From positions 5,412 through 69,411 of the forward strand of contig PHDM01000001.1 of the NCBI GenBank assembly GCA_002840985.1: a DNA stretch of 64,000 bases. Reading direction: 5' to 3'. Positions 48,122-64,000 of this stretch are shown here, piece after piece; the stretch's first letter is position 1; every line of letters begins with the position of its first letter. Source of the DNA: Bacteroidetes bacterium HGW-Bacteroidetes-17 (GTDB lineage Bacteria; Bacteroidota; Bacteroidia; Bacteroidales; GCA-2711565). The position numbers were made by a program, and so were the translations under genes. Below the pieces are notes generated by a model. That model ran no database searches, was not told where the DNA came from, and worked only from the letters and a program-made list of their open reading frames with translations.

Positions 48122-50506
48122 TTATTTAGGATTTAAAACTGTTTTGGTTACAGCTACTTCTTTTATTTTATCCAGCGAATAATAAACCGGAAAGTACTGA
48201 TCCCTGGCCCATGGTTCAAATAAGTTACTGTAAAAAGGACTGTCAGGATTGCCCGATTGACCCGGCCCGTTTGTTCCAACAGCTTCATCCCAATCTCCTG
48301 TATTTACGATCAAACGAAAAGAAGCACCGCTACTTTGTCGGTTGCCACCACCCGTAGAGCCGGTGGTATAGGCGTTTCCTCCCCTGGGTAGCGGACCAAG
48401 GTTCAGCTTCAGCTTAAGTTCATCGTTTACCAATCCTCCCAAGGGATGAACCATGTAGGTATGTTTGTACTTTTCCTGACCGTATTGCCAGCTGTTCATA
48501 TCTTTACCAAGCATTTTTTCGAGCGACGCAACTGCATCATCGAAGGCTTCTGTTAAAAATTGATCTCTGCCTGAGATCGGTTTTGGACCGAATTTGATAT
48601 CGGGATTCATTAACCAGTCAATAATTTTTGTGAGTTGGATGCCTGAAATGACATCCTTTCCATCTTCAGGGATAAATCTTTCATGGGCAAGTGATTTTAT
48701 CTTGTTTTCCCAGGCCACATATATACCGGCTGCAATCGACTGCGGTTCGAGCTTGTAATCCCAGTTTTTCAAAAAATCCCTGGCTTCGGCTGATTTGCCT
48801 GTCATTGAAAGATTGGCAAGTAAAGGAATTAAGGTTCTGGCAGGAATTGATAGGTAATCAACCTGCAATGCTTTCATATCATCCATATTAAGCTTTTTTC
48901 CCGATCCAAGTACTTCATTTGAACGATCTCCCCGGTAAGGATCTGACCAGGAGAACCCGATGGCATCCCAATATTCATAATCATCAGGAACCACATATTG
49001 ATTTGAAGTAGCAAAGAACCCTTTCTCCGGGTTAAATAAATGTGGTTTTTCTATGATAGGCAAATAACCGTCCCACTCATAACTGCCATCCCCAGGAACA
49101 GGCACCAGGCCGCTGAAATTTCTTCGAACAGGCGCAATTCCAACGGATTGCCAGCCAATATTCCCTTTCGGATCGGCCCAGATCATGTTTTCGCCCGGGA
49201 TGTGGCTATACTTACATGCTGCACGAAATTCTTCCCAGCTCTTTGCCTGATTCATTCGCAGAGATGCCAGATATGGCGCACCACCCGGTTCCAGCCATGC
49301 ACATCTGATAGAGTAAGCTTTGTGGTTTAAAGTATCAATATAAGTAACCGGGCCATGCCTTGTATACAATAATTCAACCTTAACTTCATCCTTTCCTTTT
49401 ATTTTTATGTTTTCATTAATTGAAGTCATTTCCTCCCACGAGCCTTTGTAACTATATTGTTTCAGGTTTGCAGGGTTCAGATCATAAACATAGAGGTCTT
49501 CACCATCCGTACTGAAAATTGTTAGGCCCCAAGCCCCATATTCATTATGTCCGATTGAGATACCCGGAATTTCGGGTTCGCCACCGCCGATGACATTCCA
49601 ACCGGGAGCTACCAAATGGGTCATATACCGGAGTGCAGGAACGGCAATGGTGCGATGAGGATCATTGGCCATATAAGTATTGCCATCTTCCATCAGTGCA
49701 CCACTCACTACCCAATTATTGCTTCCGATCGATAAAGGATCTTCTTTCGGATCGTCAGTTATTGCAAATGCCATTTCTTCTGGAGAATTTTTATAGGCCG
49801 AATCAATATCCTCCGACCTAAATCGTAAGGTTCTGCGGTAGGCATCATAAAGCTCCAGTATATTGTCTGTTAATAATTCCTTATTGATCTTCGGATCAAG
49901 GTCGATGATCGGATCCCTGGGATGAAACCAATACAGGTCTTTTACACGTTCTGACCCTAATTTGGCAACGGCCTGTCCAATTTGAAGTTCAGAACCAATG
50001 TTGCCAAGTAGTCCCTGGTGCCTTGAGATTACAACTTCAGGGGTCCATTTTTCGGGAAGGATATTCAGCATTTTAAACTCGATGGGAAGTTGTTCCGGAT
50101 TGGCCCTTATTTCATCTATGTAGGCATTTACACCATCAGCATAGGCAGTTATGATTTCTACCCCATCCGGATGATAATGGTTCATTTCCTCATTCATATC
50201 TCCCCTGAATTTAAAAAGCCGTGTGCCGATATCCCTTTTCAACTCACGTTCTCCCAAAATTTCTGCCACAGTTCCTGTAGCCTGTCTTCTCCAGACTTCA
50301 AATTGGAAAAGCCGGTCCTCGGCAGCAGTATATCCCTGGGCAAAAAACAGATCGTGCTGATTTTTGGCATAAATGTGATTGATCCCCCATTCATCCCTCA
50401 TGATTTCAACCGGTTCAAATAAGCCCGTCATATCCTTCTTAATGGTTGTGGAAGAGGTACAGGAGGCAAGAATGATCAAAACTGACAAGAATAGAAATTT
50501 TCTCAT
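48122..50506 (-). CDS. Penicillin acylase family (S45, Ntn-hydrolase; possibly an acyl-homoserine-lactone or beta-lactam acylase)
   Basis: Lipoprotein-like signal (ILASC). Autoprocessing/nucleophile site LSIGSNNWVVSG. 794 aa, typical length. Confidence 0.85.
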   Translation of the reverse strand: MRKFLFLSVLIILASCTSSTTIKKDMTGLFEPVEIMRDEWGINHIYAKNQHDLFFAQGYTAAEDRLFQFEVWRRQATGTVAEILGERELKRDIGTRLFKFRGDMNEEMNHYHPDGVEIITAYADGVNAYIDEIRANPEQLPIEFKMLNILPEKWTPEVVISRHQGLLGNIGSELQIGQAVAKLGSERVKDLYWFHPRDPIIDLDPKINKELLTDNILELYDAYRRTLRFRSEDIDSAYKNSPEEMAFAITDDPKEDPLSIGSNNWVVSGALMEDGNTYMANDPHRTIAVPALRYMTHLVAPGWNVIGGGEPEIPGISIGHNEYGAWGLTIFSTDGEDLYVYDLNPANLKQYSYKGSWEEMTSINENIKIKGKDEVKVELLYTRHGPVTYIDTLNHKAYSIRCAWLEPGGAPYLASLRMNQAKSWEEFRAACKYSHIPGENMIWADPKGNIGWQSVGIAPVRRNFSGLVPVPGDGSYEWDGYLPIIEKPHLFNPEKGFFATSNQYVVPDDYEYWDAIGFSWSDPYRGDRSNEVLGSGKKLNMDDMKALQVDYLSIPARTLIPLLANLSMTGKSAEARDFLKNWDYKLEPQSIAAGIYVAWENKIKSLAHERFIPEDGKDVISGIQLTKIIDWLMNPDIKFGPKPISGRDQFLTEAFDDAVASLEKMLGKDMNSWQYGQEKYKHTYMVHPLGGLVNDELKLKLNLGPLPRGGNAYTTGSTGGGNRQSSGASFRLIVNTGDWDEAVGTNGPGQSGNPDSPFYSNLFEPWARDQYFPVYYSLDKIKEVAVTKTVLNPK

Positions 50507-50806: not shown

Positions 50807-50973
50807 CAAGACTCAAGACTCAAGATGCAAGACTCAAGATGCAAGACACAAGACACAAGATGCAAGACAAGACATCAAGTTTCAAGTAACAATTAACAAG
50901 TAACTAGTAACTAGTAACCAGTAACCAGTAACAAGAGACAACTGTCTAAAATCTAACGTCTAATATCTACTCC
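50807..50973. repeat. Degenerate heptanucleotide tandem array (about 24 units)
   Basis: The unit drifts CAAGACT/CAAGATG/CAAGACA -> CAAGTAA -> CTAGTAA -> CCAGTAA -> CTAAnnT. Strict 7-nt phase over 50807-50869 and 50876-50973 (one 1-nt slip). The array ends at the stop codon of the M14 gene. Confidence 0.85.
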
Positions 50974-52832
50974 TACATAGAGTCTATTTCAATGCGTTTT
51001 TTATCTTTTCCGCCATTCACCGATTCGGTATTAAACTCGATCCAGCCATCGGCACCATTGGTTTTTACCAGATAACGGATTCTTAACGAATCTTCACCAC
51101 CCAATAAGAATTCCGTTTCTTTCGTCCCGGAGCTTTTGGCTTTGGCCGAACTGGTGTTGGTTGGTATTGTTGTGCTTTCATCCGTAATTTCCAACAACTC
51201 GATATTTCCTGAAGAATTAAAGAAAATCTTGTCCTTCACATAATCACCTAGTTTTATCGTTCGGTCGGAAACCGTTGGATAAACCTTATCGTTTTTTACG
51301 ATCACATCCACCCATAAAAGGTTGTGAACCGCCGGGGTCACTTCAATACTTTCAATTTCAACCTTTGGGAACTGGCTTGCACAATACATCACGAACTGGG
51401 CATTTTTTTCGGCTTCCATTTCGATGTAACGGGCAGGTGGGGTGCGTCCGATATGTTTTTTTAAACTACCGCCCATCCATATTTCGCCCAAATCGGGATG
51501 ATTGAATTGATAAGGATTGATCCAGCCTTCACCGTTCAATTCTATATCTACAAATTCAACGTACTCTTCTTCCGTAATCCGGCCATCATCGTTTTTATCG
51601 GCTGCGAACACCGGCGAACCCCATAGTTCGATGAGGTAAGCATAATTGCCCAGCATTTCGTAAGAACTGGCTTGTGCTTGTCCCTGACCTCCTGAAGGAG
51701 TGGGGCGATAGTTTTTCAGGATGCGCGCTCCCATCTCAACAATCTTGGTTTGGGTTTCCATGTCGGTTTCATAGCCTTTTTGAACCTGATAATCGAAAGC
51801 CTGAGCATATTTGTTCTCTTTACGGCGCTCGGCCAATTGTTGGTCGAACCGTGTTTTTGCCTGGGCCACTTGTTCGGGAGTTCTGTTATCCCTGGCTTGT
51901 GGTGGTCTTGAAAACATGATCAACCTGCCGGTATTATGAAAATGGAAACTGGCAAAAATATTGGGATGTGCCAACTGAAATTCAAAAACATTGCGGGTTT
52001 CAGATTCAGACATGGGGTAAGGATTTCCGGCTTGTAAATTCCAATCGGAAGGGAAATTGCGGTTAGGATCAGGCCCACCCAAATCATCTTCGTTGATGCT
52101 GCCATCACCATCATTATCAAATCCTTCAGAACCGATACGGTTAAATCGCATTACCTTTTCGGCTTTATCGGTTATCATTTCAAAACGGCGTCCATCTATT
52201 GAAAGTTTGAACATCCCATTTGGATCTTCTTTATACATGGTGGTTAATTCACCATCCCCGTCTACATCTTCTGTTTGGTCCTCATCGTACAAACCGTCAC
52301 CATCATTGTCTTCGGGGCGATAAGGTTCGCGTGGGTTATTCTCGGTATTTGGAAATTTGACATACGATTCATTTGCGTCAACATTTAATCCGGGCAGGAT
52401 ATAAAAAGTTGTTTTATTCAACATTTCAAAAACGTAGGGGTCGTAATCGTAACGGGTGAGCAAATACCAGGCTGTATAAAGTGAGCACATGATCCCGTTC
52501 ACTTCATTTCCGTGAATTGCACCATCAACCCACATGGCAGGTTTCTCGGTATCCATTCCGGTTTTTTTGGCCGTAATGGTCAGTAAGTATTGATCTTTTC
52601 CCATTCTTGATTTTCCGATACTTTCGATAGAGGCCAGATTTGGATATTTTTTTTGCATATCGTGCATGATCTTGGTCCAATCGTTGTAGGAATAATAATG
52701 CTTCCAGCTCATTACAAAGTCCAATTCGCCATGATAGCCACCGGGTTGGGTTTGTTTTTTTTCTTGCGCGTTAACGGTTAAACTCAGAGAGACTGTTAAC
52801 AGCATACTTGCGATAATATATTTTACTTGCAT
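50973..52832 (-). CDS. M14 family zinc carboxypeptidase with Asp-rich calcium-binding-like inserts
   Basis: Signal peptide. Zinc-ligand block VDGAIHGNEVNG. DNDGDGLYDEDQTEDVDGDGE and FDNDGDGSINEDD inserts. NRNF block. Confidence 0.85.
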   Translation of the reverse strand: MQVKYIIASMLLTVSLSLTVNAQEKKQTQPGGYHGELDFVMSWKHYYSYNDWTKIMHDMQKKYPNLASIESIGKSRMGKDQYLLTITAKKTGMDTEKPAMWVDGAIHGNEVNGIMCSLYTAWYLLTRYDYDPYVFEMLNKTTFYILPGLNVDANESYVKFPNTENNPREPYRPEDNDGDGLYDEDQTEDVDGDGELTTMYKEDPNGMFKLSIDGRRFEMITDKAEKVMRFNRIGSEGFDNDGDGSINEDDLGGPDPNRNFPSDWNLQAGNPYPMSESETRNVFEFQLAHPNIFASFHFHNTGRLIMFSRPPQARDNRTPEQVAQAKTRFDQQLAERRKENKYAQAFDYQVQKGYETDMETQTKIVEMGARILKNYRPTPSGGQGQAQASSYEMLGNYAYLIELWGSPVFAADKNDDGRITEEEYVEFVDIELNGEGWINPYQFNHPDLGEIWMGGSLKKHIGRTPPARYIEMEAEKNAQFVMYCASQFPKVEIESIEVTPAVHNLLWVDVIVKNDKVYPTVSDRTIKLGDYVKDKIFFNSSGNIELLEITDESTTIPTNTSSAKAKSSGTKETEFLLGGEDSLRIRYLVKTNGADGWIEFNTESVNGGKDKKRIEIDSM

Positions 52833-52845
52833 GATTTTTCCCTCC

Positions 52846-54945
52846 TTATTTAATGGTTAATGATTTTACTTGTGTACCACCTTTTTGTGAACTCACTACA
52901 ATTTGCAGCGGACTGTTGTCTTCAACGGCGACTAACCATTTCACTTCACGGGTTGAGCCCATTTCTTTCTTTTCTGGTTCTTCCCCTCTGGGCTCTTTTG
53001 GAGCTGGCATGCCATAAAATCCTCTTTGTTGTGATGCATCTCTGGGAGGTATTGGCTTATATCCAGGGATTTTTAGTTTTCCCTGAATGACTCCTAATTT
53101 TTGATAGGCATCTCCTTGAAGGAAGGTAACTTTATCCCGATCGCCAATCAGCCAAACTACATCTTCACGGTTTAACGGAAGCTGTTCTCCGTTGGCACGT
53201 TGTGTGGCCAATTTCCCCATATTTTCAATGGTTGCCGTTACTTCAACAATTTTATAATTTCCTATCGAATTTCCTTTTTTAATATTGACTTTATTATCTT
53301 TCATCATTGCCTCAGCTTCGGCAGCAGTTGCTGAATAAAGCACTTTGGCGCTTGCTTCTTTGATCACAACTTTTGGCATGAGCTGTGCCCTGAATAATTC
53401 GAATTGCCAATGGGTTTCACATACATCGATCAGGGGTTGTCCGGGGAATGCATTGTTGCTGCCATACATCGGGATCCATCCTCCAATTTCACCGTCTCCC
53501 AATTCGGGGTGTTTGTATTTTTCCCACGGGATAAATAATTTTCCTCCGAACTTTTCGTCCTGATATTTTAATACGGCACGTTGAGTTTTAAGATATGCAT
53601 CCTCGCCAGTGAACTCAGGAATGTCTTTGATATCTTTACGGATGTTCCATAGTTCGGTAGTGGTTGCATAAACGCCCCATTGCATAAATGCCCAATCTGA
53701 TTGAAATCCAAACTGGATATTTTTGTCCACAATTTCATCGTAACTGGTGGTCCAGCCATGAGTAAATTCATAACCGCGTTGTATGGCGTATTTATTTTTT
53801 GATGTTTTCTTTAGTTCTTCTTTATAAAAACTGATTGAATCAGGATACAAATAGGCTTTGGGGATTTCTTCACCTAAAAGTTCCAAATATTTTTTACCCA
53901 TAACCATGTCGTAAACGGCTACATCATTACTGTGCATGCTTGCAGGTGATTGGGTACCGCAGGGGCGGATGGTATAACCGCCGGAGGTATGGTAAAACTG
54001 AGCCATGTAGATATTCGGGTGATTCGTAAAAAATTCTGCCAAGGCACGTGTTTCAGGTTCAGAGAAAGGATAATCTCCCTGTCCGCCTTTCATCCCCTCA
54101 TCTTTAAACCATTTTTCGGAGAAGTTACGGTTCATGTCAATGCCGAATTCTGAATCTTCTCCACGTTTTCCGTCATTGTCGTTGTCTTTATCTTCTCTAA
54201 TCACCGACCATCTTTCTTTAGCGGTTTTTTCATCTTTTTCTAATCGAATCATCAACCGTGGATCTGTTTCATCCATGATATACGTTCCTTTGGGATCTTT
54301 GTAACGGAATTGGGTGTAAAACCCGTCGTCGTTTAAGTCATCAGGGCCGTCCTCATTCATTTTCCCATCTTTGTCATCATCTTTTAACTTTGAATTCTGA
54401 CGCTGCGGAATTCCAATTTCCACACTGTTATAAACACCATCGGCATTCACGATCGGGCAAATGTAAAATGCCTGTTCATCGACCAATCGGGTGATGTTTT
54501 CGTCATTGCCATAACCACTTACTAATTTATCAATAATGTACAGACTGACCTCTGTACCGGTATATTCGTTACCATGGGTTGCTCCCGAAATCCAAAAACC
54601 CGGTTTGCCCAAATCAGAAGTCATTTTCGGAACATTATTGATGCCCTCTTTTCGCATATTGCGGAGTTCAACGTACTGATCGATGGTATTTCCGGTTTTC
54701 TGATTGGAGATAATCAGCAAATTGATGGGACGGTCAAAATTACTTCGGCCAATCTCAACCAATTGCGTGATGTTGGGATATTTTTTTGCAACATCCTTAA
54801 GATAAGTTTGGGTTTTTGTATATCCATGAAAGCTGTTGAAATCAATCGGAACTTTCTGTGAATAAGCGTTTACCCCGAAGCCGGACATGATTAAAAGACC
54901 AAATGTCAGGCAAATAGTCTTTTTGTTGGCAAAGAAAAGGTTCAT
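52846..54945 (-). CDS. M14 family zinc carboxypeptidase, second paralog
   Basis: Signal peptide. ISGATHGNEYTG. DDDKDGKMNEDGPDDLNDDG and DKDNDNDGKRGED inserts. MNRNF. 13-nt gap to the downstream paralog. Confidence 0.85.
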   Translation of the reverse strand: MNLFFANKKTICLTFGLLIMSGFGVNAYSQKVPIDFNSFHGYTKTQTYLKDVAKKYPNITQLVEIGRSNFDRPINLLIISNQKTGNTIDQYVELRNMRKEGINNVPKMTSDLGKPGFWISGATHGNEYTGTEVSLYIIDKLVSGYGNDENITRLVDEQAFYICPIVNADGVYNSVEIGIPQRQNSKLKDDDKDGKMNEDGPDDLNDDGFYTQFRYKDPKGTYIMDETDPRLMIRLEKDEKTAKERWSVIREDKDNDNDGKRGEDSEFGIDMNRNFSEKWFKDEGMKGGQGDYPFSEPETRALAEFFTNHPNIYMAQFYHTSGGYTIRPCGTQSPASMHSNDVAVYDMVMGKKYLELLGEEIPKAYLYPDSISFYKEELKKTSKNKYAIQRGYEFTHGWTTSYDEIVDKNIQFGFQSDWAFMQWGVYATTTELWNIRKDIKDIPEFTGEDAYLKTQRAVLKYQDEKFGGKLFIPWEKYKHPELGDGEIGGWIPMYGSNNAFPGQPLIDVCETHWQFELFRAQLMPKVVIKEASAKVLYSATAAEAEAMMKDNKVNIKKGNSIGNYKIVEVTATIENMGKLATQRANGEQLPLNREDVVWLIGDRDKVTFLQGDAYQKLGVIQGKLKIPGYKPIPPRDASQQRGFYGMPAPKEPRGEEPEKKEMGSTREVKWLVAVEDNSPLQIVVSSQKGGTQVKSLTIK

Positions 54946-55777: not shown

Positions 55778-55831
55778 TTAACGGATTTCAACTAAACAAA
55801 AAAAACTGACCAATGGTCAGCTTTTTTGTTG

Positions 55832-56196
55832 TGGAGCTGCAGGGATTCGAACCCTGGTCCAAACAAGCAGTCAAAACGCTTTCTACATGCTTATCCTTTA
55901 GTTGATTGTCGGGAGATAACCGATGAAAGGCACACCTATTATCACCTTAGTCTTTTTATTTCGCTCGTGCACCAAGACCTTGCAAAAGCTAGCTCAACAT
56001 TTATGATGCTTCGGTCGGGACACCGTTAAGCGAGGTTTCCCGGGAAGCAGTAAGCGGCTTAATCTCTAGACTAAGCGGCTAACGCGTAATGATTGTCGCC
56101 AGTTAATGGCTGTGAGAATTAGGATTAACGAGGCATATTCACAACCCTCGGCATGCTTACATCTCCACTTCCTTGCTGTCAAAACCGGTCAGCCCC
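55832..56196 (-). ncRNA. ssrA: tmRNA (SsrA), tag reading frame GDNHYALAA-stop
   Basis: The minus strand starts GGGGCTGACCGGTTTTGACAGC and ends GGACCAGGGTTCGAATCCCTGCAGCTCCA (T-arm + acceptor with G3:U wobble; CCA not encoded). Tag ORF GGC GAC AAT CAT TAC GCG TTA GCC GCT TAG at 56100-56071. Terminator hairpin CTGAC/GTCAG at 55806-55820. Confidence 0.93.
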
Positions 56197-56559: not shown

Positions 56560-58275
56560 ATGAAAAAATCAACCCTCTTCTTATGCATTATTATTATTTC
56601 ATCATTAGTAATAAATGCTCAAAATGTTGCTCAATCAGGTAAAAAAGTTAAAGATCAAAAGGTTTCTTCTGATTATGACCGAAACTCAATGACCTTTTAT
56701 TATCTGGATTTTAATGAAACTCACAGCGATTTGGTAAAACAAAAATTTTCCTCATTTGCAGTACCCGATAAATTCTATGACAATACCTTGGATGTAAAAT
56801 TCCTTAAAATGCTAAATGACAGAGCTTCAATAACAAGCACTTCGGTATTTACGAAACAACTTAATACTTCTAGTTTGGATAATGTGTTAAGTGAAAATAA
56901 AGCCGGACAAAAATTGATTTCGAAATGGTTTAATCGCACCAATGGAATGTTTGGAGTTGACGTATTAAAAGAAAGGGGAATGTATAATGCTACCGATGCA
57001 GACTATGTAGTTGCTCAGGCATCGAAGAGGGGCAAGGCAGCGTTGATGGATATGGGCATGAATCTGGTAGATAAATCATATGTTTTGATGTTTGATTTTT
57101 CAAATGTCATGACCATGAATGAATACTATGAAAAGAATAAAACAGAAGCTAAGAACCGAACCAGTAACGGTTTTACGGCAGATGTCACGGGGTACTTATA
57201 TAAATTGGATTTTAACGATTCTGTTGCTGCAATCTTTTTTCAGGATTATTGGATTGGTGAAAATGACCCGAATCGTGAATCAAAAATGAAGGCTTTCGAG
57301 TCAACTTCTTTCCCGCTGAAGTTCGTATCCACTTTCACACAGCCACTTTCTGCATCTCAACTCAATCCCGGACAAAAGTTGGCTCCTAAAACGCAAAAAA
57401 GCAGCGATCAACTTATGCAGGATTTGGTGAATTCAGGAATGAATGGGATCATCACGAAAATAGAGAATAAATTTGATGAATTCAGGGTAAAAGCATTTGT
57501 AACAGGAGTGAGGCCCATCACCTCTAAAATTGGAAGAAAGGAAGGCTTGAAGTTTGATCAGCGATATTTTGTATACGAAAATATTCAAACCAATAGTGGC
57601 GAAACTATTACAAAAAGAAAAGGTGTTGTTAAGGCAATAAAAATTTCGGACAATAGAGATATCACCAGTGGCGAAACCCAACCCTCTCAATTCTATCAAA
57701 CTTCAGGATGGAAAATTGATAATTTCGGAATGTTCATGGAACAAAAAAATGCAGTAGGAATCAACCTCTTTTTAGGATTGACCAATACAGAATTTACCGG
57801 TTTTGCAGGTCGTGCCGAGTTTTATATATCAACACTGATTTATGAAGGAGCAGTGAAGAGGGGCAGATCAGGATTGCTAAGTTCACTTCATCTCTATATA
57901 GAGGGAGGATATGAAACGCAGGAAAACCTGAATACGGAATATGATTTCTTAAAACTTAGCGCCGGTTTTGGAAAAGAATTATATCCTATTCCAAACTTCC
58001 ATATTGCCCCATTTGTTGGATATGGTTTGGAAAAAGCTACTTGGGATAATGTAGCAGATAACAAAATATCAAGCCAGTTTGTGGAAGGTGGGTTACGTGC
58101 AGGGATAAACGCGACTTATAATATCCAGCTTGTAGGATCCGTTAATTACAAATATGTTCTTTTCTCCGAGGAACAAGATAAGGATGGAACCAAAGTTAAG
58201 GATATTACTTACGACGACACATTCCCAAATCGGGGCGGAATTGGGTATTCATTTGGAATTCGATTTATGTTTTAA
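56560..58275 (+). CDS. Secreted protein with C-terminal outer-membrane beta-barrel-like domain (hypothetical), gene 1 of a 4-gene operon
   Basis: Signal peptide MKKSTLFLCIIIISSLVINAQN. The C-terminal ~180 aa show alternating hydrophobic strands and end GIGYSFGIRFMF (terminal aromatic, OMP-like). Confidence 0.6.
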   Translation: MKKSTLFLCIIIISSLVINAQNVAQSGKKVKDQKVSSDYDRNSMTFYYLDFNETHSDLVKQKFSSFAVPDKFYDNTLDVKFLKMLNDRASITSTSVFTKQLNTSSLDNVLSENKAGQKLISKWFNRTNGMFGVDVLKERGMYNATDADYVVAQASKRGKAALMDMGMNLVDKSYVLMFDFSNVMTMNEYYEKNKTEAKNRTSNGFTADVTGYLYKLDFNDSVAAIFFQDYWIGENDPNRESKMKAFESTSFPLKFVSTFTQPLSASQLNPGQKLAPKTQKSSDQLMQDLVNSGMNGIITKIENKFDEFRVKAFVTGVRPITSKIGRKEGLKFDQRYFVYENIQTNSGETITKRKGVVKAIKISDNRDITSGETQPSQFYQTSGWKIDNFGMFMEQKNAVGINLFLGLTNTEFTGFAGRAEFYISTLIYEGAVKRGRSGLLSSLHLYIEGGYETQENLNTEYDFLKLSAGFGKELYPIPNFHIAPFVGYGLEKATWDNVADNKISSQFVEGGLRAGINATYNIQLVGSVNYKYVLFSEEQDKDGTKVKDITYDDTFPNRGGIGYSFGIRFMF

Positions 58276-58292
58276 TATAAAACCAAAGAATT

Positions 58293-58805
58293 ATGAACCA
58301 GAAAATGATTAATCTAAGTATTGTTTTTGTTTTTATATTTTCATTGAGCATGAGTGCTCAAACAAAAAAACAAAAAAAAATGGCAGGTTATTTAATAACC
58401 AACTATGAAGTGGAATGTATGGGTACAGGAATGGATGGCACCCAATTGGTAAAAATTTGGGGTTTTGGAAATAAACCTGAAAAAGCAGTTTATCAAGCTA
58501 AGAAAAATGCAGTTCATGCAATCATGTTTAAAGGAATATTGGGCGGTAAGCCCGGATGCATGCAACGACCTTTAATTAACGATCCGGCTGCAACCGAAAA
58601 ACATAGCGATTATTTTGATCTCTTCTTTGAAGATGGCGGAAGATATTTGCAATTTGTTTCGGAAACCGGTGATGGAACCATGGACAGAATTAAAGTTTCC
58701 AAAAAGGAATACAAAGTAGGAATTGTAGTATCTATAAGGCATTCAGCATTAAGAACGGAGTTAGAAACTGCCGGAATTATTAATAAATTAGGAAACGGAT
58801 TTTAA
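58293..58805 (+). CDS. Secreted hypothetical protein (possibly LPP20-like fold), gene 2
   Basis: Signal peptide ..IFSLSMSAQT. 170 aa. 17-nt gap to gene 1. The fold guess rests only on the pattern EKAVYQAKKNAVHAIMFKGI. Confidence 0.55.
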   Translation: MNQKMINLSIVFVFIFSLSMSAQTKKQKKMAGYLITNYEVECMGTGMDGTQLVKIWGFGNKPEKAVYQAKKNAVHAIMFKGILGGKPGCMQRPLINDPAATEKHSDYFDLFFEDGGRYLQFVSETGDGTMDRIKVSKKEYKVGIVVSIRHSALRTELETAGIINKLGNGF

Positions 58806-58817
58806 AACTTAAAACGT

Positions 58818-59774
58818 ATGAAAAGGATATTCTTTTTACTATTTTCAGTTATAATCACCATAAGCGTCTTTTCTCAGGCTAAAAAACCTACGATCATGAT
58901 TGTTCCCAGTGACAACTGGTGTATCAAAAATGGCTATTCAATGACACGCGACATCATGGGAAGTGCGCGTACTTTTCCGGATTATCGGATGGCCCTCCAA
59001 CAAGAAACGGATCTGCTTCTGGTTATCGGAAAGATCAACACATTGATGGCTGATCGTAGTTTCCCTTTGAAAAACTTGGAAAGTGTTATGAACACCATTG
59101 AAACCCAAGGTGCTGAGCTTAGTATGCTGACAAGCAATTCGGGAAGTGATATTGCCGAAACTCCTATTGATGTATTAAAAAGGACAGCAAATGCCGATAT
59201 CATCATTCAATTGAACTATGTAATAAATCAAAGCGGTCCGAAACGATCCATCACCTTCATGCTTCAAGGGATCGATGCTTATACCAATAAGCAAATTGCA
59301 GGAGCTCAGGGTACCGGTGAACCTTCTTTTGCGAGTGAAACAGCTATTTTACTTGAAGAAGCCGTACTTGCCCACCTGGATAATTTTAATGCAAGATTAC
59401 AGGATCACTTTAATGATTTACTGACCAATGGACGTGAAATTGTTTTTCAGGCAAGGGTTTGGGATAGTTCCCCATTTAATTTAGAAGAGGAATTTGATTG
59501 GAACGGAGAAATATTGGAATTGGGTGAGATCATTGAAGATTGGGTATCAGTCAATACCGTTGAAGGCAGGTTCAATACCTCAAATTATACCGAAAATCAA
59601 ATTTTATTCGAACAAGTTAGGATCGCCTTATATGATGATCGTGGCCGTGCACAGGATACCAGAAGATGGATCAGAGATTTGAGAACTCTTATTGGCAATC
59701 CTCCATTTTCATCCCCCGCCAAGATTTATACCCGTGGTTTGGGTGAAATTTGGCTGATTATCGGTGAAAAATAA
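58818..59774 (+). CDS. Secreted hypothetical protein, gene 3
   Basis: Signal peptide MKRIFFLLFSVIITISVFSQA, then KKPTIMIVPSDNW. 318 aa. 12-nt gap to gene 2. Confidence 0.55.
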   Translation: MKRIFFLLFSVIITISVFSQAKKPTIMIVPSDNWCIKNGYSMTRDIMGSARTFPDYRMALQQETDLLLVIGKINTLMADRSFPLKNLESVMNTIETQGAELSMLTSNSGSDIAETPIDVLKRTANADIIIQLNYVINQSGPKRSITFMLQGIDAYTNKQIAGAQGTGEPSFASETAILLEEAVLAHLDNFNARLQDHFNDLLTNGREIVFQARVWDSSPFNLEEEFDWNGEILELGEIIEDWVSVNTVEGRFNTSNYTENQILFEQVRIALYDDRGRAQDTRRWIRDLRTLIGNPPFSSPAKIYTRGLGEIWLIIGEK

Positions 59775-59801
59775 CATTTTTAATCATTTAAACTTTTAAA
59801 G

Positions 59802-60761
59802 ATGAAAAAGATACTTGTTTTATTGATGTTGCTGCCACTAATTGCTTTTTCGCAAAATAATTATGGTTCGGCCAACGATCAGGATCGGATTGCATTGACG
59901 GTAATTATTCCTCCAGGAGTTGATGGAATTCCGGAACATGCCAGAAGTTTACTGCAAAATAAACTTGATCAGGTTGCCTCGCAAAATGGTTTGGGTGGAA
60001 TTTCTGGAAGTCCACGATTTGCACTGACGGCAAAAATGTCGGTGATGACAAAAGATATCACCCCAACCCAACCCCCAATGGAAGCCTATACTTATGGTAT
60101 CTATTTGTATATTGTTGATATTGTGGAACAAACAATTGTTTCGTCCACTTCAATTACAACGAAAGGGGCAGGTACCAATGCGAACAAAGCCTATACCAAC
60201 GGGCTTAAACCTATCAATTTGAATAATACAGAGATTAAAAATTTTATGCAGGATGGTAAACGTAAAATCATCGAGTATTATAATTCAAAATGTGATTTTA
60301 TTATTTCCAGAGCGAAATCATTGGCTTCTCAAAATCAATTCGGACAATCACTTGCTTTATTATCCTCTGTTCCGGATGTTTGCAAGGATTGTTTTATGAA
60401 GTGTATGGATGAAATAGGCCCCATCTATCAGGATTATATCAACCACGACTGTGAAGCTTATGTAAACATTGCTTCAGGGTTATTTGCCGCGAATCCAAAT
60501 ACTACCGGTGCTGTTGATGCAACTGCTGTACTTTCATTGATCGATCCTGATTCTGATTGTTTCAAAAAATCGGGTACGCTCATCTCGAAAATTGAAAAGA
60601 AAATGAGAGAAGACGAAAAGCGTGATTGGAAATTTATGGAAAGGGTTTGGGGCGATAATGTGAAACTTGAAGCAATGAGAATTAAAGCTTATCGGGATGT
60701 TGGGGTTGCATTTGGTCAAGGCCAGCAACCTACCTATCAAAGTGTTTTATGGGTATTTTAA
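59802..60761 (+). CDS. Secreted Cys-rich hypothetical protein, gene 4
   Basis: Signal peptide MKKILVLLMLLPLIAFSQ. The helical C-terminal half carries 7 Cys (CDF, VCKDCFMKC, HDCEAY, SDCFKK). 27-nt gap to gene 3. Terminator follows. Confidence 0.55.
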   Translation: MKKILVLLMLLPLIAFSQNNYGSANDQDRIALTVIIPPGVDGIPEHARSLLQNKLDQVASQNGLGGISGSPRFALTAKMSVMTKDITPTQPPMEAYTYGIYLYIVDIVEQTIVSSTSITTKGAGTNANKAYTNGLKPINLNNTEIKNFMQDGKRKIIEYYNSKCDFIISRAKSLASQNQFGQSLALLSSVPDVCKDCFMKCMDEIGPIYQDYINHDCEAYVNIASGLFAANPNTTGAVDATAVLSLIDPDSDCFKKSGTLISKIEKKMREDEKRDWKFMERVWGDNVKLEAMRIKAYRDVGVAFGQGQQPTYQSVLWVF

Positions 60762-60766
60762 TTTGC

Positions 60767-60800
60767 AAAAAAACCGGAGATTTTTTCTCCGGTTTTTTTT
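60767..60800. terminator. Bidirectional rho-independent terminator
   Basis: AAAAAAA-CCGGAGA (60774-60780) ttttt TCTCCGG (60786-60792) -TTTTTTTT. Lies between convergent genes 59802-60761(+) and 60811-61980(-). Confidence 0.9.
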
Positions 60801-60810
60801 GTTCCGGAAT

Positions 60811-61980
60811 CTATCTTTTATGGGTTAATGGATGGGCAAAACGGATAACATCTTCAGGAGTGATTACCTTATCGCATAAAATAGCCAATCGTTCTAAAAC
60901 ATTTCTAAATTCACGAATATTACCGGTCCATTCAATCTTTTGGAGTTCGGCAATGGCTTCATCACTAATCTGCATGATTGCTTTTCCTGCCTGCGAGCTG
61001 ATGTCTTCAAGAAAATGATTTGCCAATATTGGGATGTCTTCAGTACGTTCTCTTAATGGCGGAACCTGAATTAAAATAACACTTATGCGGTGATAAAGAT
61101 CTTCACGAAATCTTTTATTTTCAATTTCTTCGTTTAAATCCTTATTTGTTGCAGCAATAACCCGCACATCAACTGTTATGTCTTTTTCTCCACCAACCCG
61201 CATAATTTTATTCTCCTGCAAAGCCCTTAATACTTTTGCCTGGGCAGAGAGACTCATATCGCCAATTTCATCTAAAAATAGGGTGCCTCCGTGAGCCAAT
61301 TCAAAATTTCCCTTTCGTTGTTTGATGGCCGACGTGAAAGATCCTTTTTCGTGACCGAATAGGTTACTTTCAATTAGTTCACTAGGGATAGCCGCGCAAT
61401 TTACTTCTACAAAAGGTGATTTTGCTCTTTTGCTTTGTTCGTGAAGTGCGCGTGCCACCAATTCTTTTCCTGTCCCATTTTCACCGGTAATTAAAACACG
61501 GGCATTCGTGGGTGCCACCTTTTCAATCATCTCCTTAACCTGCAAGAGCGCCTCAGATTCTCCGATCATATCCCATTTCTTCCCAACTTGCTTCTTCAGT
61601 ACTTTTGTTTCGGTAATGAGCTTGGATTTGTCCATGGCATTGCGAATGGTTACCAGTAACCGATTCAAATCAGGAGGTTTTGAAATATAGTCGTATGCGC
61701 CTTTTTTAATGGCTTCAACAGCGGTATCAATGGTGCCGTGACCGGAGATCATTATGATAGGAGTATCCGTTAATTCGAGTGTTTTGGTTAAAACTTCCAT
61801 GCCATCCATGCGAGGCATTTTGATGTCACAAAGAATAACATCATATTCATTTTGACTTATTTTTTCAAATCCAATTACACCGTCTTCAGCCTCATCAATG
61901 AGGTATTTTTCGCTTTCCAGTATATCCCGTAAAGTGTTTCTGATGCTGCGTTCGTCGTCGATGATGAGTATTCTGGCCAT
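60811..61980 (-). CDS. Sigma-54-dependent response regulator (REC + AAA+), apparently lacking the C-terminal HTH
   Basis: MARILIIDDE, CDIKMPRMDG, ITGENGTGKELVARALH (Walker A), EKGSFTSA (GAFTGA variant), LFLDEIGDM, GNIREFRNVLERL. Only about 25 aa follow the AAA+ domain. Confidence 0.85.
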   Translation of the reverse strand: MARILIIDDERSIRNTLRDILESEKYLIDEAEDGVIGFEKISQNEYDVILCDIKMPRMDGMEVLTKTLELTDTPIIMISGHGTIDTAVEAIKKGAYDYISKPPDLNRLLVTIRNAMDKSKLITETKVLKKQVGKKWDMIGESEALLQVKEMIEKVAPTNARVLITGENGTGKELVARALHEQSKRAKSPFVEVNCAAIPSELIESNLFGHEKGSFTSAIKQRKGNFELAHGGTLFLDEIGDMSLSAQAKVLRALQENKIMRVGGEKDITVDVRVIAATNKDLNEEIENKRFREDLYHRISVILIQVPPLRERTEDIPILANHFLEDISSQAGKAIMQISDEAIAELQKIEWTGNIREFRNVLERLAILCDKVITPEDVIRFAHPLTHKR

Positions 61981-62011: not shown

Positions 62012-62461
62012 TTAATCAGCAGTAGGTTTATTATAAGTTAATTTCAGTTTTTTAGCCTTATAATAAATTACTGCGTTGTATTTACTCAATAAATCTCCCC
62101 CAATAACTCCATGTATTTTGGGAAGTTTAAGTTTTGAGTATGAGTCATTGATGTTAGTAAGATCAAGGATTACAGCCATGTAATTTTTGATATTTAAGTC
62201 GCCAATTTTTAATGATTTTAAGCTAAATGCTAAACTTTTCATGGTATTGGTCCCCAATCCGGTTGATAATTTCTCATTAGTTTCAAAATCATCATATTCA
62301 TCCGGCAGATAGTTTTTTATCAGGGTTTCGTCAAAAACTGTTCGCGATGCGCCTGTATCGATAATGAGATTGGCTTTTTTGCCATTAATTTTTACTCTGA
62401 TCAACAGATGAAACCCATCATCTTCAATTGGTAATATTTCAATTGGTATGTTTGTTTGCAT
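62012..62461 (-). CDS. Retropepsin-like (clan AA) aspartic protease
   Basis: LIIDTGASRTVF (DTG active-site loop) and GVIGGDLL. 149 aa. Confidence 0.75.
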   Translation of the reverse strand: MQTNIPIEILPIEDDGFHLLIRVKINGKKANLIIDTGASRTVFDETLIKNYLPDEYDDFETNEKLSTGLGTNTMKSLAFSLKSLKIGDLNIKNYMAVILDLTNINDSYSKLKLPKIHGVIGGDLLSKYNAVIYYKAKKLKLTYNKPTAD

Positions 62462-62478
62462 TTAAAAAAGTTCAGTTT

Positions 62479-63189
62479 CTAGAAGTTTGGATGTAGTGCA
62501 TATTTTAGATAAAACTTATCAATGCAATTAACCGCCTCCTCGGCAGAATCAACAAGCTGGAAGATATCCATATCTTGTTCCTTGATATTGCCTTCACTAA
62601 TAAGTTTATCTTTTATCCAATCAATTAATCCACCCCAATAATCTTTTGAAATGAGAATGATTGGAAAATTTACTAATTTTTGGGTTTGAATAAGGGTGAT
62701 GGCTTCAAACATCTCATCCAAGGTCCCAAACCCGCCTGGTAAAACAATATAACCCTGCGAATATTTCATGAAAATCACTTTTCGAACGAAAAAATGATCA
62801 AATTCAAGGAGCTTGTCGTGATCGATGTAAAGGTTTGGGGTTTGTTCAAAAGGCAAACGGATATTGAGTCCGACTGATTTACCACCTGCAGTGTGTGCTC
62901 CCTTATTAGCGGCTTCCATAATACCGTGGCCCCCTCCGGTAATTACACCGAATCCTCTTTTTATCAACAATTCGGCAACTTCAACAGCAATTTGATAGTA
63001 AGGATGATCATCTTTTGTACGGGCCGAACCAAACACCGATACGCAAGGACCGATGCGGGCCATCTTTTCAAAACCACCCACAAATTCGGACATTACTTTG
63101 AAAATTTGCCAGGAATCGTAGGTTTTTATTTCGTTCCAGCTTTTTGATTTTAGCGCCTTACGGATTTTAACTTCATCTTTTTTATTCAT
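62479..63189 (-). CDS. LOG family / TIGR00730 Rossmann-fold nucleotide-binding protein (cytokinin-riboside-5'-monophosphate phosphoribohydrolase-like)
   Basis: GVITGGGHGIMEAANKGA and LPGGFGTLDEMFE signatures. Confidence 0.85.
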   Translation of the reverse strand: MNKKDEVKIRKALKSKSWNEIKTYDSWQIFKVMSEFVGGFEKMARIGPCVSVFGSARTKDDHPYYQIAVEVAELLIKRGFGVITGGGHGIMEAANKGAHTAGGKSVGLNIRLPFEQTPNLYIDHDKLLEFDHFFVRKVIFMKYSQGYIVLPGGFGTLDEMFEAITLIQTQKLVNFPIILISKDYWGGLIDWIKDKLISEGNIKEQDMDIFQLVDSAEEAVNCIDKFYLKYALHPNF

Positions 63190-64000
63190 CTGTTTTTGCT
63201 ATTGGAAGTGTAAAAGTAAAGATACTTCCTTTTCCTTCCTCACTTTCAACAAAAATTTCTCCTCCGTTAAGCTTGATGAATTCATTGCATAAAATTAATC
63301 CGAGACCCGTACCCGTTTCATTGGCTGTGCCCTTGATTTTAAAATCAGAATCGATTTTGAATAGTTTCTTTTGATTTTCACTGTTTATTCCAATTCCATT
63401 ATCGCTCACACTTACAACAAGATAATCATCCTTTCTTTTTGCGGAAACCTCGATTTTTCCATTAGGCATGGTGAACTTTATAGCATTATTGATCAAATTT
63501 CGAATGATCGTTATTAGCATATCTTTATCTGCATATGTAGTAATCCCTTCCTCAATGGCATATTTTATTTCCATATTTTTTGGCTCGGCCATTTCATCGA
63601 AATATTCAGCCTTGGAATTTATGATTTCAGATAGAATTAAGTTTTGAGGATTCACCGTTAAACTTCCTGATTGGGAACGTGCCCATGTTAGTAGGTTTTC
63701 GAGCAACTCGTAACTGAACTCTGAGGTGTTATAAATGGATTTAATGATTTTATCATACTTTTCAGCATCTTCTTTAATACCGGGTTCACTGATCAAAAGT
63801 TCGGCATATCCAATTAATACATTAAATGGATTCCTAAGATCATGGGCAATAATAGAAAAGAATTTATCCTTTGTTGCATTTAGCGCTTCGAGCTCTTTTT
63901 CATTTTCTTCCAATTTATTGATGGATATCTTTAGTTCTTCCGATTGTTGCTCAATAATTTCATTTTGATTTTTAAGATATTTATTTGTTTTTGATTTATT
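63182..64000 (-). CDS. Histidine kinase (HisKA + HATPase_c), N-terminus beyond the window end
   Basis: H-box FFSIIAHDLRNP. NLINNAIKF, DNGIGI, GTGLGLILC. The frame stays open from 63913 to base 64000 (..NKYLKNQNEIIEQQSEELKISINKL..), so the listed start is not the real one. 8-nt overlap with the LOG gene. Confidence 0.8.
   Translation of the reverse strand, partial: NKSKTNKYLKNQNEIIEQQSEELKISINKLEENEKELEALNATKDKFFSIIAHDLRNPFNVLIGYAELLISEPGIKEDAEKYDKIIKSIYNTSEFSYELLENLLTWARSQSGSLTVNPQNLILSEIINSKAEYFDEMAEPKNMEIKYAIEEGITTYADKDMLITIIRNLINNAIKFTMPNGKIEVSAKRKDDYLVVSVSDNGIGINSENQKKLFKIDSDFKIKGTANETGTGLGLILCNEFIKLNGGEIFVESEEGKGSIFTFTLPIAKTDE

Follow-up and report, generated by a model that had tools for sequence, protein, structure and literature searches.

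A conserved four-gene operon of Bacteroidota that may encode an outer-membrane-anchored periplasmic complex

A stretch of 64,000 nucleotides (nt) from Bacteroidetes bacterium HGW-Bacteroidetes-17 (assembly GCA_002840985.1, contig PHDM01000001.1, positions 5,412 to 69,411), in the following called the window, was analyzed with respect to a group of four genes at positions 56560–60761. We found that the four genes form one operon, that the same four genes are found together in many other genomes, and that all four proteins carry export signals. With a rough probability of 55%, the operon encodes a periplasmic hetero-oligomer that is anchored in the outer membrane. In this complex, gene 1 (g1) would serve as the anchor, gene 3 (g3) would provide a collar module of the PelC/PqiC/CsgG type, gene 4 (g4) would be an adaptor of the tetratricopeptide repeat (TPR) type, and gene 2 (g2) would contribute a small subunit.

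The four open reading frames (ORFs) are located on the plus strand and encode proteins of 571 (g1, 56560..58275), 170 (g2, 58293..58805), 318 (g3, 58818..59774), and 319 (g4, 59802..60761) amino acids. In the window sequence they are separated by spacers of just 17, 12, and 27 nt; coordinates and spacers agreed with those of an original prediction, which had been made from the sequence alone. The designation of g1 as the putative outer-membrane anchor subunit is based on the ORF, an AlphaFold2 model, and synteny, that of g3 as the DUF6175 subunit on the ORF and the match to the Pfam family PF19672. For g2, a putative small periplasmic subunit, and for g4, which is predicted to combine an alpha/beta domain with a Cys-containing, TPR-like helical domain, the ORFs and family alignments were used. 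The two motifs quoted in the original prediction, GIGYSFGIRFMF and KKPTIMIVPSDNW, were both found in the proteins. Sequence and folding revealed a bidirectional intrinsic terminator (60766..60800, not assigned to one strand) that is common to the operon and the convergent gene of a sigma-54 activator. Its hairpin, CCGGAGA-TTTTT-TCTCCGG at 60774–60792, lies between an A-run and a T-run and has a folding energy of −19.8 kcal/mol (z = −6.2 versus shuffles), and it is thus able to terminate the operon as well as the convergent gene, as had been proposed. The hairpin was not on the list of a simple terminator scan. The spacer from ssrA, the gene for the transfer-messenger RNA (tmRNA), to g1 is AT-rich and has a length of 363 nt. 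The Bacteroidetes-type promoter motif TAnnTTTG was not found in this spacer, and a sigma-70 scan upstream of g1 gave scores no better than those of shuffles.

The conservation of the operon was analyzed with a pattern scan, in which each GTDB species was represented by one genome. It detected relatives of g1 in 213 genomes, and 80 loci were retrieved. Sixty-five related loci extended for at least 2.7 kb after g1, and 63 of them contained g1-g2-g3-g4 in the same order and on the same strand. The median spacers across the loci were 22, 19, and 17 nt. The circularly permuted order g2-g3-g4-g1 was found in two loci (L003 and L059), and lone or extra g1 paralogues were present in a few. The operon occurs in Prolixibacteraceae, Draconibacterium, Mariniphaga, Lentimicrobiaceae, Salinivirgaceae, Tenuifilaceae, Rikenellaceae, Paludibacter, and Saprospiraceae, and the flanking genes vary from genome to genome. 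The four-gene grouping is more than chance, and the synteny check that had been suggested with the original prediction yielded a gene order that is conserved across Bacteroidia and Saprospiraceae. An exhaustive profile search gave 1366 g1 representatives at 50% identity, 662 of which had E ≤ 1e-30, and the relatives of g3 and g4 comprised 5515 clusters (at 90% identity) and 578 clusters, respectively. The window versions of g3 and g4 are 100% identical to proteins of HGW-Bacteroidetes-17. The median identities to the window proteins across the loci were 60% for g3, 58% for g2, 47% for g4, and 39% for g1. The most conserved of the four proteins is therefore g3, with identities of 47–73% across families.

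The signal peptides end with INA/Q (g1), MSA/Q (g2), VFS/Q (g3), and AFS/Q (g4), the slash denoting the cleavage site. The signal peptide of g1 comprises residues 1–20 (...LVINA/Q; 56560..56619, plus strand), and Gln21 is nearly invariant. The signal peptides of the four window proteins do not contain a lipobox Cys, and in the alignments of all four families, position +1 is always or almost always Gln. In Bacteroidetes, a Gln at this position is the signature of signal peptidase I substrates, the "Q-rule" (PMC5837995). The claim that all four proteins have signal peptides of this type and lack a lipobox was therefore confirmed. The cysteines of two families were also analyzed. Cys42 and Cys89 of g2 are both present in 48 family members and both absent in 26, and in no case was just one of them found; such a pattern would be expected of a disulfide in an oxidizing compartment. 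The window g4 contains six cysteines (C164, C194, C197, C201, C217, and C253) instead of the seven counted before; C164 and C197 are invariant, and C217 and C253 are conserved in most members. The isoelectric points of the mature proteins are 8.5 for g1, 9.3 for g2, and 4.7 for g3, and thus the charges are complementary, which speaks for the complex proposed below.

The AlphaFold2 model of g1 was built with 40 homologues and reached a predicted local distance difference test score (pLDDT) of 81. An alpha/beta N-domain (residues ~40–310; 56677..57489, plus strand), delimited by secondary structure in blocks with pLDDT values of 88–97, contains the conserved motifs WFNR..DG and RGxYNAxD. It is followed by a small all-beta domain (residues ~318–397; 57511..57750, plus strand) with the motif P-I-x-A-K-I-G-K-K-E-G and with strands modelled at residues 335–343, 349–361, 376–383, and 391–395. 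In 90 divergent members, P319, G325, K327, and E328 are nearly invariant. The C-terminal part (residues ~400–571; 57757..58272, plus strand) is predicted to form an outer-membrane beta-barrel; in the model, eight long strands of 16–19 residues, similar in length to those of Ail, OmpX, and OpcA, span residues 401–570. A Foldseek search of the PDB with g1 retrieved exclusively small outer-membrane barrels, i.e., TtoA, Ail, OmpX, OmpA, OprF-N, NspA, and OmpW, with E values of 5e-7 to 1e-3 and, for the first six, a probability of 1.0. The window protein ends with ...GIRFMF, the last four residues of family members are RFMF, RIMF, RIEF, KIMF, and similar, and Phe is the last residue in nearly all of them. 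This terminal Phe is the C-terminal aromatic beta-signal residue for the beta-barrel assembly machinery (BAM).

Profile searches gave a weaker signal for the barrel. The window g1 did not match the Pfam models of outer-membrane barrels at E ≤ 1, and PF13505 (OMP_b-brl) had weak matches in 12 of 40 g1 family members, with a best E value of 4e-4, which is below the curated cut-off. Taken together, the C-terminus of g1 is predicted to belong to the 8-stranded barrels of the OmpA/OmpX/Ail class. The barrel check suggested with the original prediction, which had placed an outer-membrane barrel in the C-terminal ~180 residues, had a positive result in strand number, Foldseek matches, and terminal residue. 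Both termini of an even-stranded barrel are on the periplasmic side, as in the topology of porins. Because the number of strands is even, the N-terminal ~360 residues of g1 should be periplasmic, and thus a periplasmic complex is favored over a surface complex. The original prediction had left both options open. The signal peptides, the cysteines, and the predicted fold of g3 all fit a periplasmic complex anchored in the outer membrane; the surface option is disfavored by the predicted position of the g1 N-terminal part.

The third protein, g3, is a member of the Pfam family PF19672 (DUF6175), with E = 1.1e-107 and 359.9 bits versus a cut-off of 23; residues 22–316 align with positions 1–293 of the 293 positions of the profile. 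Its relatives are annotated as "DUF6175 family protein", and no paper with "DUF6175" was found in the literature. This was the only match of the four window proteins in Pfam, NCBIfam, PADLOC, and PHROGs, and hence these searches did not assign any of the proteins to unrelated known functions. The earlier statement that none of the four could be placed in a family of known function thus holds with respect to function, but g3 has both a Pfam family and recognizable fold relatives. The AlphaFold2 model of g3 was built from a shallow alignment and is of moderate quality (pLDDT 69, predicted template modelling score 0.56). The N-domain (residues ~22–204; 58881..59429, plus strand) has, according to the model and Foldseek, an alpha/beta fold similar to that of GNA1162, CsgG, PelC, PqiC, and LpoB. 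The C-domain (residues ~205–318; 59430..59771, plus strand) is alpha/beta according to the secondary structure of the model and is highly conserved, e.g., at D280-T-R-R-W.

The best PDB match of the g3 N-domain in Foldseek was GNA1162 (4hrv), with E = 9e-5, a probability of 1.0, and a template modelling (TM) score of 0.54. Further matches were CsgG, the PqiC-like XCC0632, PelC, LpoB, HpaA together with a related H. pylori protein, and FlgT; the entries included 4uv2, 2iqi (PqiC-like), 5t0z, 5t11, and 9h80 (PelC), 4q6l, and 3w1e (FlgT). With moderate confidence, the N-domain of g3 shares the alpha/beta core fold of the group of PelC, CsgG, PqiC, GNA1162, LptE, and LpoB. The same fold set (2IQI, 4UV2, 5T0Z, 5T11, 3W1E, 3BGH, and LptE) was retrieved independently in a 2026 paper on PqiC-like lipoproteins (PMC13631591). 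According to this paper, the set has a conserved alpha/beta core, is located at the periplasmic face of the outer membrane, and forms rings of 8 (PqiC), 9 (CsgG), or 12 (PelC) subunits, and a hydrophobic groove of the PqiC-like proteins binds C-terminal peptides of partners (PMC13631591). The ring of PelC rests on PelB (PMC12141448). At the level of sequence profiles, g3 did not match CsgG (PF03783), DUF799, LPP20 (PF02169), or PqiC-like families; DUF6175 was its only match in Pfam at E ≤ 1, and NCBIfam yielded nothing. A search of PDB sequences with the g3 profile gave nothing below E = 1.3.

The small protein g2 did not have a match in Pfam, NCBIfam, or the PDB, and in the family alignment it always ends with Gly-Phe. 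In g4, a conserved N-terminal alpha/beta domain (residues ~18–163) precedes the C-terminal TPR-like helical domain (residues ~164–319), and the protein ends with a W-V/I-F tail. The window g4 did not match TPR or ARM models at E ≤ 1, but 24 of 41 family members match ARM_TT21 (PF25058) or TPR models (best E = 1.2e-6), and a few match TPR_19, TPR_8, or ANAPC3. A weak profile match of g4 in the PDB was TTC29 (E = 0.07). Apart from DUF6175, Pfam scans of all family members revealed only the weak OMP_b-brl matches of g1 and the ARM_TT21/TPR matches of g4, and sequence and profile searches against PDB chains with all four families gave nothing better than E = 0.046. The possibility that the four proteins are paralogues of one domain was rejected at the sequence level; an hhalign match between g1 and g4 (probability 83%) vanished after trimming of the signal peptides, and all pairs had probabilities of at most 1.4%.

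Building on the operon structure, the export signals, and the conservation, and on the modelled barrel and g3 fold class, we infer that the four proteins form one complex, and we propose the following mechanism. All four proteins would leave the cytoplasm via Sec, and signal peptidase I would cleave them before the conserved Gln. BAM would insert g1 into the outer membrane via its C-terminal 8-stranded barrel, and the N-terminal part of ~360 residues would stay in the periplasm. This part would recruit g2 (small, basic, and presumably disulfide-bonded), g3 (acidic, DUF6175), and g4 (alpha/beta and TPR-like). By analogy with the fold group of the g3 N-domain (PelC, PqiC, CsgG, GNA1162, LptE, LpoB, and FlgT), the assembly would most likely be a collar or ring under the outer membrane. 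It would not be a pore itself, but would dock or guide a membrane partner, a role comparable to that of PelC for PelB or of PqiC for PqiB. The Gly-Phe end of g2 and the W-V/I-F tail of g4 are candidate docking peptides, because the groove of PqiC-like proteins binds the C-terminal peptide of a partner. In a subset of genomes, a candidate for the partner is a secreted protein of 1000–1400 residues that adjoins the operon.

Several points weigh against this interpretation. The profile searches did not connect the four proteins with families of known function, the four mature proteins do not have sequence-profile similarity to one another, and the folds of the g1 N-domain, g2, and the g4 N-domain could not be placed. 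The model of g3 is moderate (pLDDT 69, shallow alignment), and most fold matches other than the best one (E = 9e-5) have E values of 1e-2. The known members of the fold group are lipoproteins, whereas the g3 signal peptide ends with VFS/QAKKP and, family-wide, a Cys at +1 is absent. Finally, a gene for a partner or substrate is not present in this window.

The proposed complex can be compared with several known systems. The most similar architecture is found in PelBC, the export system for Pel in Pseudomonas aeruginosa, which also combines a barrel, a PelC-type alpha/beta periplasmic subunit (as predicted for g3), and a TPR-like domain (as predicted for g4). PelBC is located at the periplasmic face of the outer membrane (PMC12141448, PMC13631591), and a periplasmic site is also proposed for the operon proteins. 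However, PelC is a lipoprotein and g3 is not, the barrel of PelB is a 16-stranded porin and that of g1 is predicted to have 8 strands, and the TPR domain is part of PelB itself instead of a separate soluble protein such as g4. In addition, pel biosynthesis genes (glycosyltransferase, deacetylase, and inner-membrane Pel genes) are not linked to the operon, and a relationship at the sequence level was not found.

A second comparison concerns the csgG-type clusters, i.e., curli CsgG/E/F and the widespread clusters of csgG with genes for GNA1162 (DUF799) and an LPP20-like lipoprotein. They resemble the operon in being small operons of exported envelope proteins, and the csgG/GNA1162 clusters also share the lack of an assigned role. 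The best fold match of g3 was GNA1162, followed by CsgG, and in some lineages a lipoprotein with a weak LPP20 match accompanies the operon. In contrast, the operon proteins do not match the Pfam models of CsgG, DUF799, and LPP20 at the curated cut-off and are not lipoproteins, and the predicted 8-stranded barrel of g1 is of a monomeric type, whereas CsgG forms a 36-stranded oligomeric pore. CsgA/B curlin repeats or CsgE/CsgF were not found in the window flanks or among the recurrent neighbors in the 80 loci. A literature search did not reveal a paper combining DUF799, DUF4810, and LPP20.

The PqiC-like lipoproteins (PqiC, PA3214, and XCC0632) and LptE share the alpha/beta core fold predicted for g3, and the entry 2iqi was among its matches. 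PqiC-like systems are characterized by an octameric ring under the outer membrane, with the peptide-binding groove described above (PMC13631591). The operon differs in that MCE, PqiA/B, or Lpt genes are not linked to it, its proteins are not lipidated, and g3 has an additional C-terminal domain of ~115 residues. The small 8-stranded barrels (OmpX, Ail, OmpA, OprF, NspA, OmpW, and Thermus TtoA) correspond to the C-domain of g1 in fold (E 5e-7 to 1e-3, TM score to the target 0.5–0.6) and in the aromatic end. The domain order of g1 is reversed in comparison with OmpA, as its barrel follows the periplasmic part instead of preceding it, and the predicted periplasmic part is a novel two-domain unit of ~360 residues and not the peptidoglycan-binding OmpA_C. 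The flagellar outer rings of Vibrio (FlgT, FlgP, and FlgO; LPHT ring) consist of LPP20/FlgT-type domains and lie under the outer membrane, and FlgT (3w1e) and a chain of the LPHT ring (8z5n) align along the full length of g3. These matches are weak (TM scores 0.2–0.25), flagellar genes were not present in the window or the fetched loci, and the similarity is restricted to an analogy of architecture. Bacteroidota are not known to have flagella.

In summary, the operon proteins would work in a manner similar to the PelC-PelB, PqiC-PqiB, CsgG-CsgE/F, and csgG-GNA1162 systems, but the operon is not a member of any of these, because profile membership and a lipid anchor are lacking, the barrel is different, and the pathway genes are not linked. 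New would be non-lipidated, barrel-anchored subunits of a ring-forming outer-membrane alpha/beta fold class.

Fusions, fissions, and recurrent neighbors in other genomes also bear on the proposed complex. A record from human feces, MT836698.1 (L085, 1–9077; "UNVERIFIED: Bacteriophage sp."), contains a split version of the operon. Recognized phage genes were not found in this record, and its DUF6175 protein and g4-like protein are identical to "MULTISPECIES ... [Segatella]" proteins on at least 1000 contigs; it appears to be a chromosomal fragment of Segatella copri. In S. copri, the periplasmic part of g1 is a separate protein of 410 residues (g1 profile positions 1–386, E = 3e-74), which is followed by a separate OMP-like protein of 192 residues, two paralogues of g2, DUF6175, and a relative of g4. 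In some relatives of g1, further modules have been added at the N-terminus. P0474, a protein of 910 residues from Bacteroidetes metagenome-assembled genomes of RIFOXY/GWF2 samples, has a WD40 propeller, and P0428 has a CarboxypepD_reg domain, both confirmed with Pfam. The extension of P0480 did not have a Pfam match and looks LPP20-like by eye. The combination of TPR, propeller, and CarboxypepD_reg domains may be reminiscent of PorE, a protein of the type IX secretion system (T9SS). In loci of the Tenuifilaceae/Rikenellaceae type, g4 is followed by two genes for a lipoprotein of ~190 residues, with a weak, sub-threshold LPP20 match (E = 0.007), and a protein of 430 residues, whose N-terminus looks similar. 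The split of g1 in S. copri, the N-terminal fusions, and the added lipoprotein seem to link these modules to one another and speak for the proposed complex.

In other lineages, a secreted protein of 187 residues (25 loci) and a lipoprotein of ~220 residues (20 loci) are encoded beside the operon, on either side. These two genes recur just 5' of g1 in Prolixibacteraceae, Lentimicrobiaceae, and Saprospiraceae; one example is L006:1364-1930 (minus strand) and L006:2037-2693 (plus strand). A secreted protein of 1000–1400 residues directly adjoins the operon in 13 loci of different lineages, plus L003; examples are L012:14251-18360 (minus strand), L015:6287-9772 (plus strand), and L003:3799-7908 (plus strand), and there are 11 further loci. 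This family of giant proteins is divergent (median pairwise identity 22%) and is characterized by a Ser/Thr-rich linker, long helical regions, and the conserved Gly-rich hydrophobic segment AGIMIVGIGAVGFGSAALVEAYGAEAAAAIYGPKILGAIYGG, and it did not have a match in Pfam, NCBIfam, PHROGs, or the PDB. The giant protein could be a partner or cargo of the complex. None of the accessory proteins (187 residues, ~220-residue lipoprotein, giant protein, lipoprotein with the weak LPP20 match, and 430 residues) has relatives in the window or an informative family match. We also considered a more far-reaching version of the proposal, according to which the operon is the core of a previously unrecognized and widespread envelope machine of Bacteroidota, in which a non-lipoprotein, barrel-anchored ring of the PelC/PqiC/CsgG class would work with glycine-zipper-containing large secreted proteins and small accessory proteins whose genes are located nearby in many genomes. 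The machine would then represent a new kind of transport system close to the outer membrane, or of trans-envelope system, instead of being a passive scaffold. This version is conceivable, albeit rather doubtful.

Other explanations of the operon were weighed against a periplasmic complex that docks or guides a partner. The four proteins might on their own constitute a CsgG-type channel for secretion, with subunits that oligomerize into an outer-membrane pore and export a protein or polymer, e.g., the adjoining giant protein. The similarity of the predicted g3 fold to CsgG and PelC is in line with such a channel, as is the fact that csgG-GNA1162-type clusters are suspected transport systems. 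However, the sole membrane element is the predicted 8-stranded barrel, through which a polypeptide or polymer would not fit, and amphipathic transmembrane hairpins like those of CsgG are not evident in g3. The giant protein accompanies the operon in L003 and in 13 or more further loci from different lineages, but is absent from most loci, and genes for an amyloid subunit, a glycosyltransferase, or another substrate were not found in the window or in most loci. A secretion channel of this kind is therefore judged to be unlikely.

A similarly low likelihood is given to a module for envelope stability or tethering, comparable to Tol-Pal, Lpp, OmpA, or LpoB, which would link the outer membrane and the periplasm or regulate cell-wall enzymes and would not be involved in transport. 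The fold group of g3 includes the N-domain of TolB and LpoB, and the WD40 propeller of one g1 relative recalls the architecture of TolB, but a TolB-like propeller occurs only as this rare fusion. TPR-like domains such as that of g4 are typical of periplasmic scaffolds, and the barrel is similar to those of OmpA and OmpX. Nevertheless, Pfam searches did not reveal a peptidoglycan-binding domain (OmpA_C, Pal, LysM, or SPOR) in the four proteins, their families, or the accessory proteins, and the operon is not consistently linked to tol, pal, or penicillin-binding protein genes, one of the latter being near it in a single locus only.

It is considerably less probable that the operon encodes a set of surface-exposed adhesins or antigens, like Ail, OmpX, OpcA, Lpp20, or HpaA. 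This explanation could account for the length of the barrel strands, which is like that of Ail, OmpX, and OpcA, and for the presence of HpaA and the related H. pylori protein among the fold matches of g3. But g2, g3, and g4 do not have a lipid anchor, a T9SS C-terminal domain, or a barrel and thus no known route to the surface, the N-terminal part of g1 must be periplasmic if the barrel is even-stranded, and a conservation across families as high as that of g3 is unusual in surface antigens. That the four genes were grouped by accident, or belong to a mobile or defense island that inserted beside ssrA, can practically be dismissed: tmRNA genes are common integration sites and one lies 363 nt upstream, but the gene order is kept in 63 of 65 loci, no tmRNA gene was found near the operon in 53 other loci, relatives were not found in plasmids or IMG/VR (the single "phage" record being the S. 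copri fragment), PADLOC gave only noise (E ≥ 0.004) and PHROGs nothing, and an integrase or repeat was not seen beside the operon. The adjacency to ssrA, which had been included in the title of the original prediction, does exist in the window, but because of its absence from the 53 other loci it is incidental.

The tmRNA gene itself (55831–56196, minus strand; window scan) encodes the tag peptide GDNHYALAA, and a terminator-like hairpin of its own is located at ~55799–55827. Beyond it are a gene for a penicillin-amidase family protein (48122–50506) and tandem genes for secreted M14 zinc carboxypeptidases of 619 and 699 residues (50973–52832 and 52846–54945, minus strand), both of which have long Asp-rich inserts of the DxDxDG type that split the peptidase domain. 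On the other side of the operon, the convergent gene (60811–61980, minus strand) encodes a sigma-54-dependent response regulator of 389 residues, for which the Pfam scan revealed receiver, AAA+, and lid domains and no C-terminal DNA-binding helix-turn-helix domain. Downstream of this activator gene lies a row of three genes (62012–63913, minus strand) for a retropepsin-like aspartyl protease (149 residues), a protein of the LOG/"lysine decarboxylase" family (236 residues), and a short histidine kinase core (HisKA and HATPase, 243 residues), which overlaps the LOG gene by 8 nt. A functional link of the operon to any of these neighbors, i.e., the two M14 carboxypeptidases, the penicillin amidase, the sigma-54 activator, the aspartyl protease, the LOG-family protein, and the histidine kinase, was rejected, as none of them recurs beside the operon elsewhere.

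The mechanism proposed for the outer-membrane-anchored periplasmic complex rests on fold analogy, and its key structural inference on one model of moderate confidence, and it should therefore be regarded as a lead and not as a discovery. The ring-forming fold of PelC, PqiC, and CsgG is usually attached to the membrane by lipids; here, the attachment would run through a partner with an 8-stranded barrel of its own. The envelope of Bacteroidota differs from that of Proteobacteria in several respects, e.g., in additional BAM subunits, the T9SS, and the Q-rule. The operon would add to this envelope a conserved part with subunits that do not have an assigned function, and its range extends from Bacteroidota of groundwater and the subsurface (relatives of Prolixibacteraceae) to S. 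copri of the human gut (at least 1000 contigs). As S. copri is genetically tractable, it may offer a handle for DUF6175 and for three families still without a Pfam entry.

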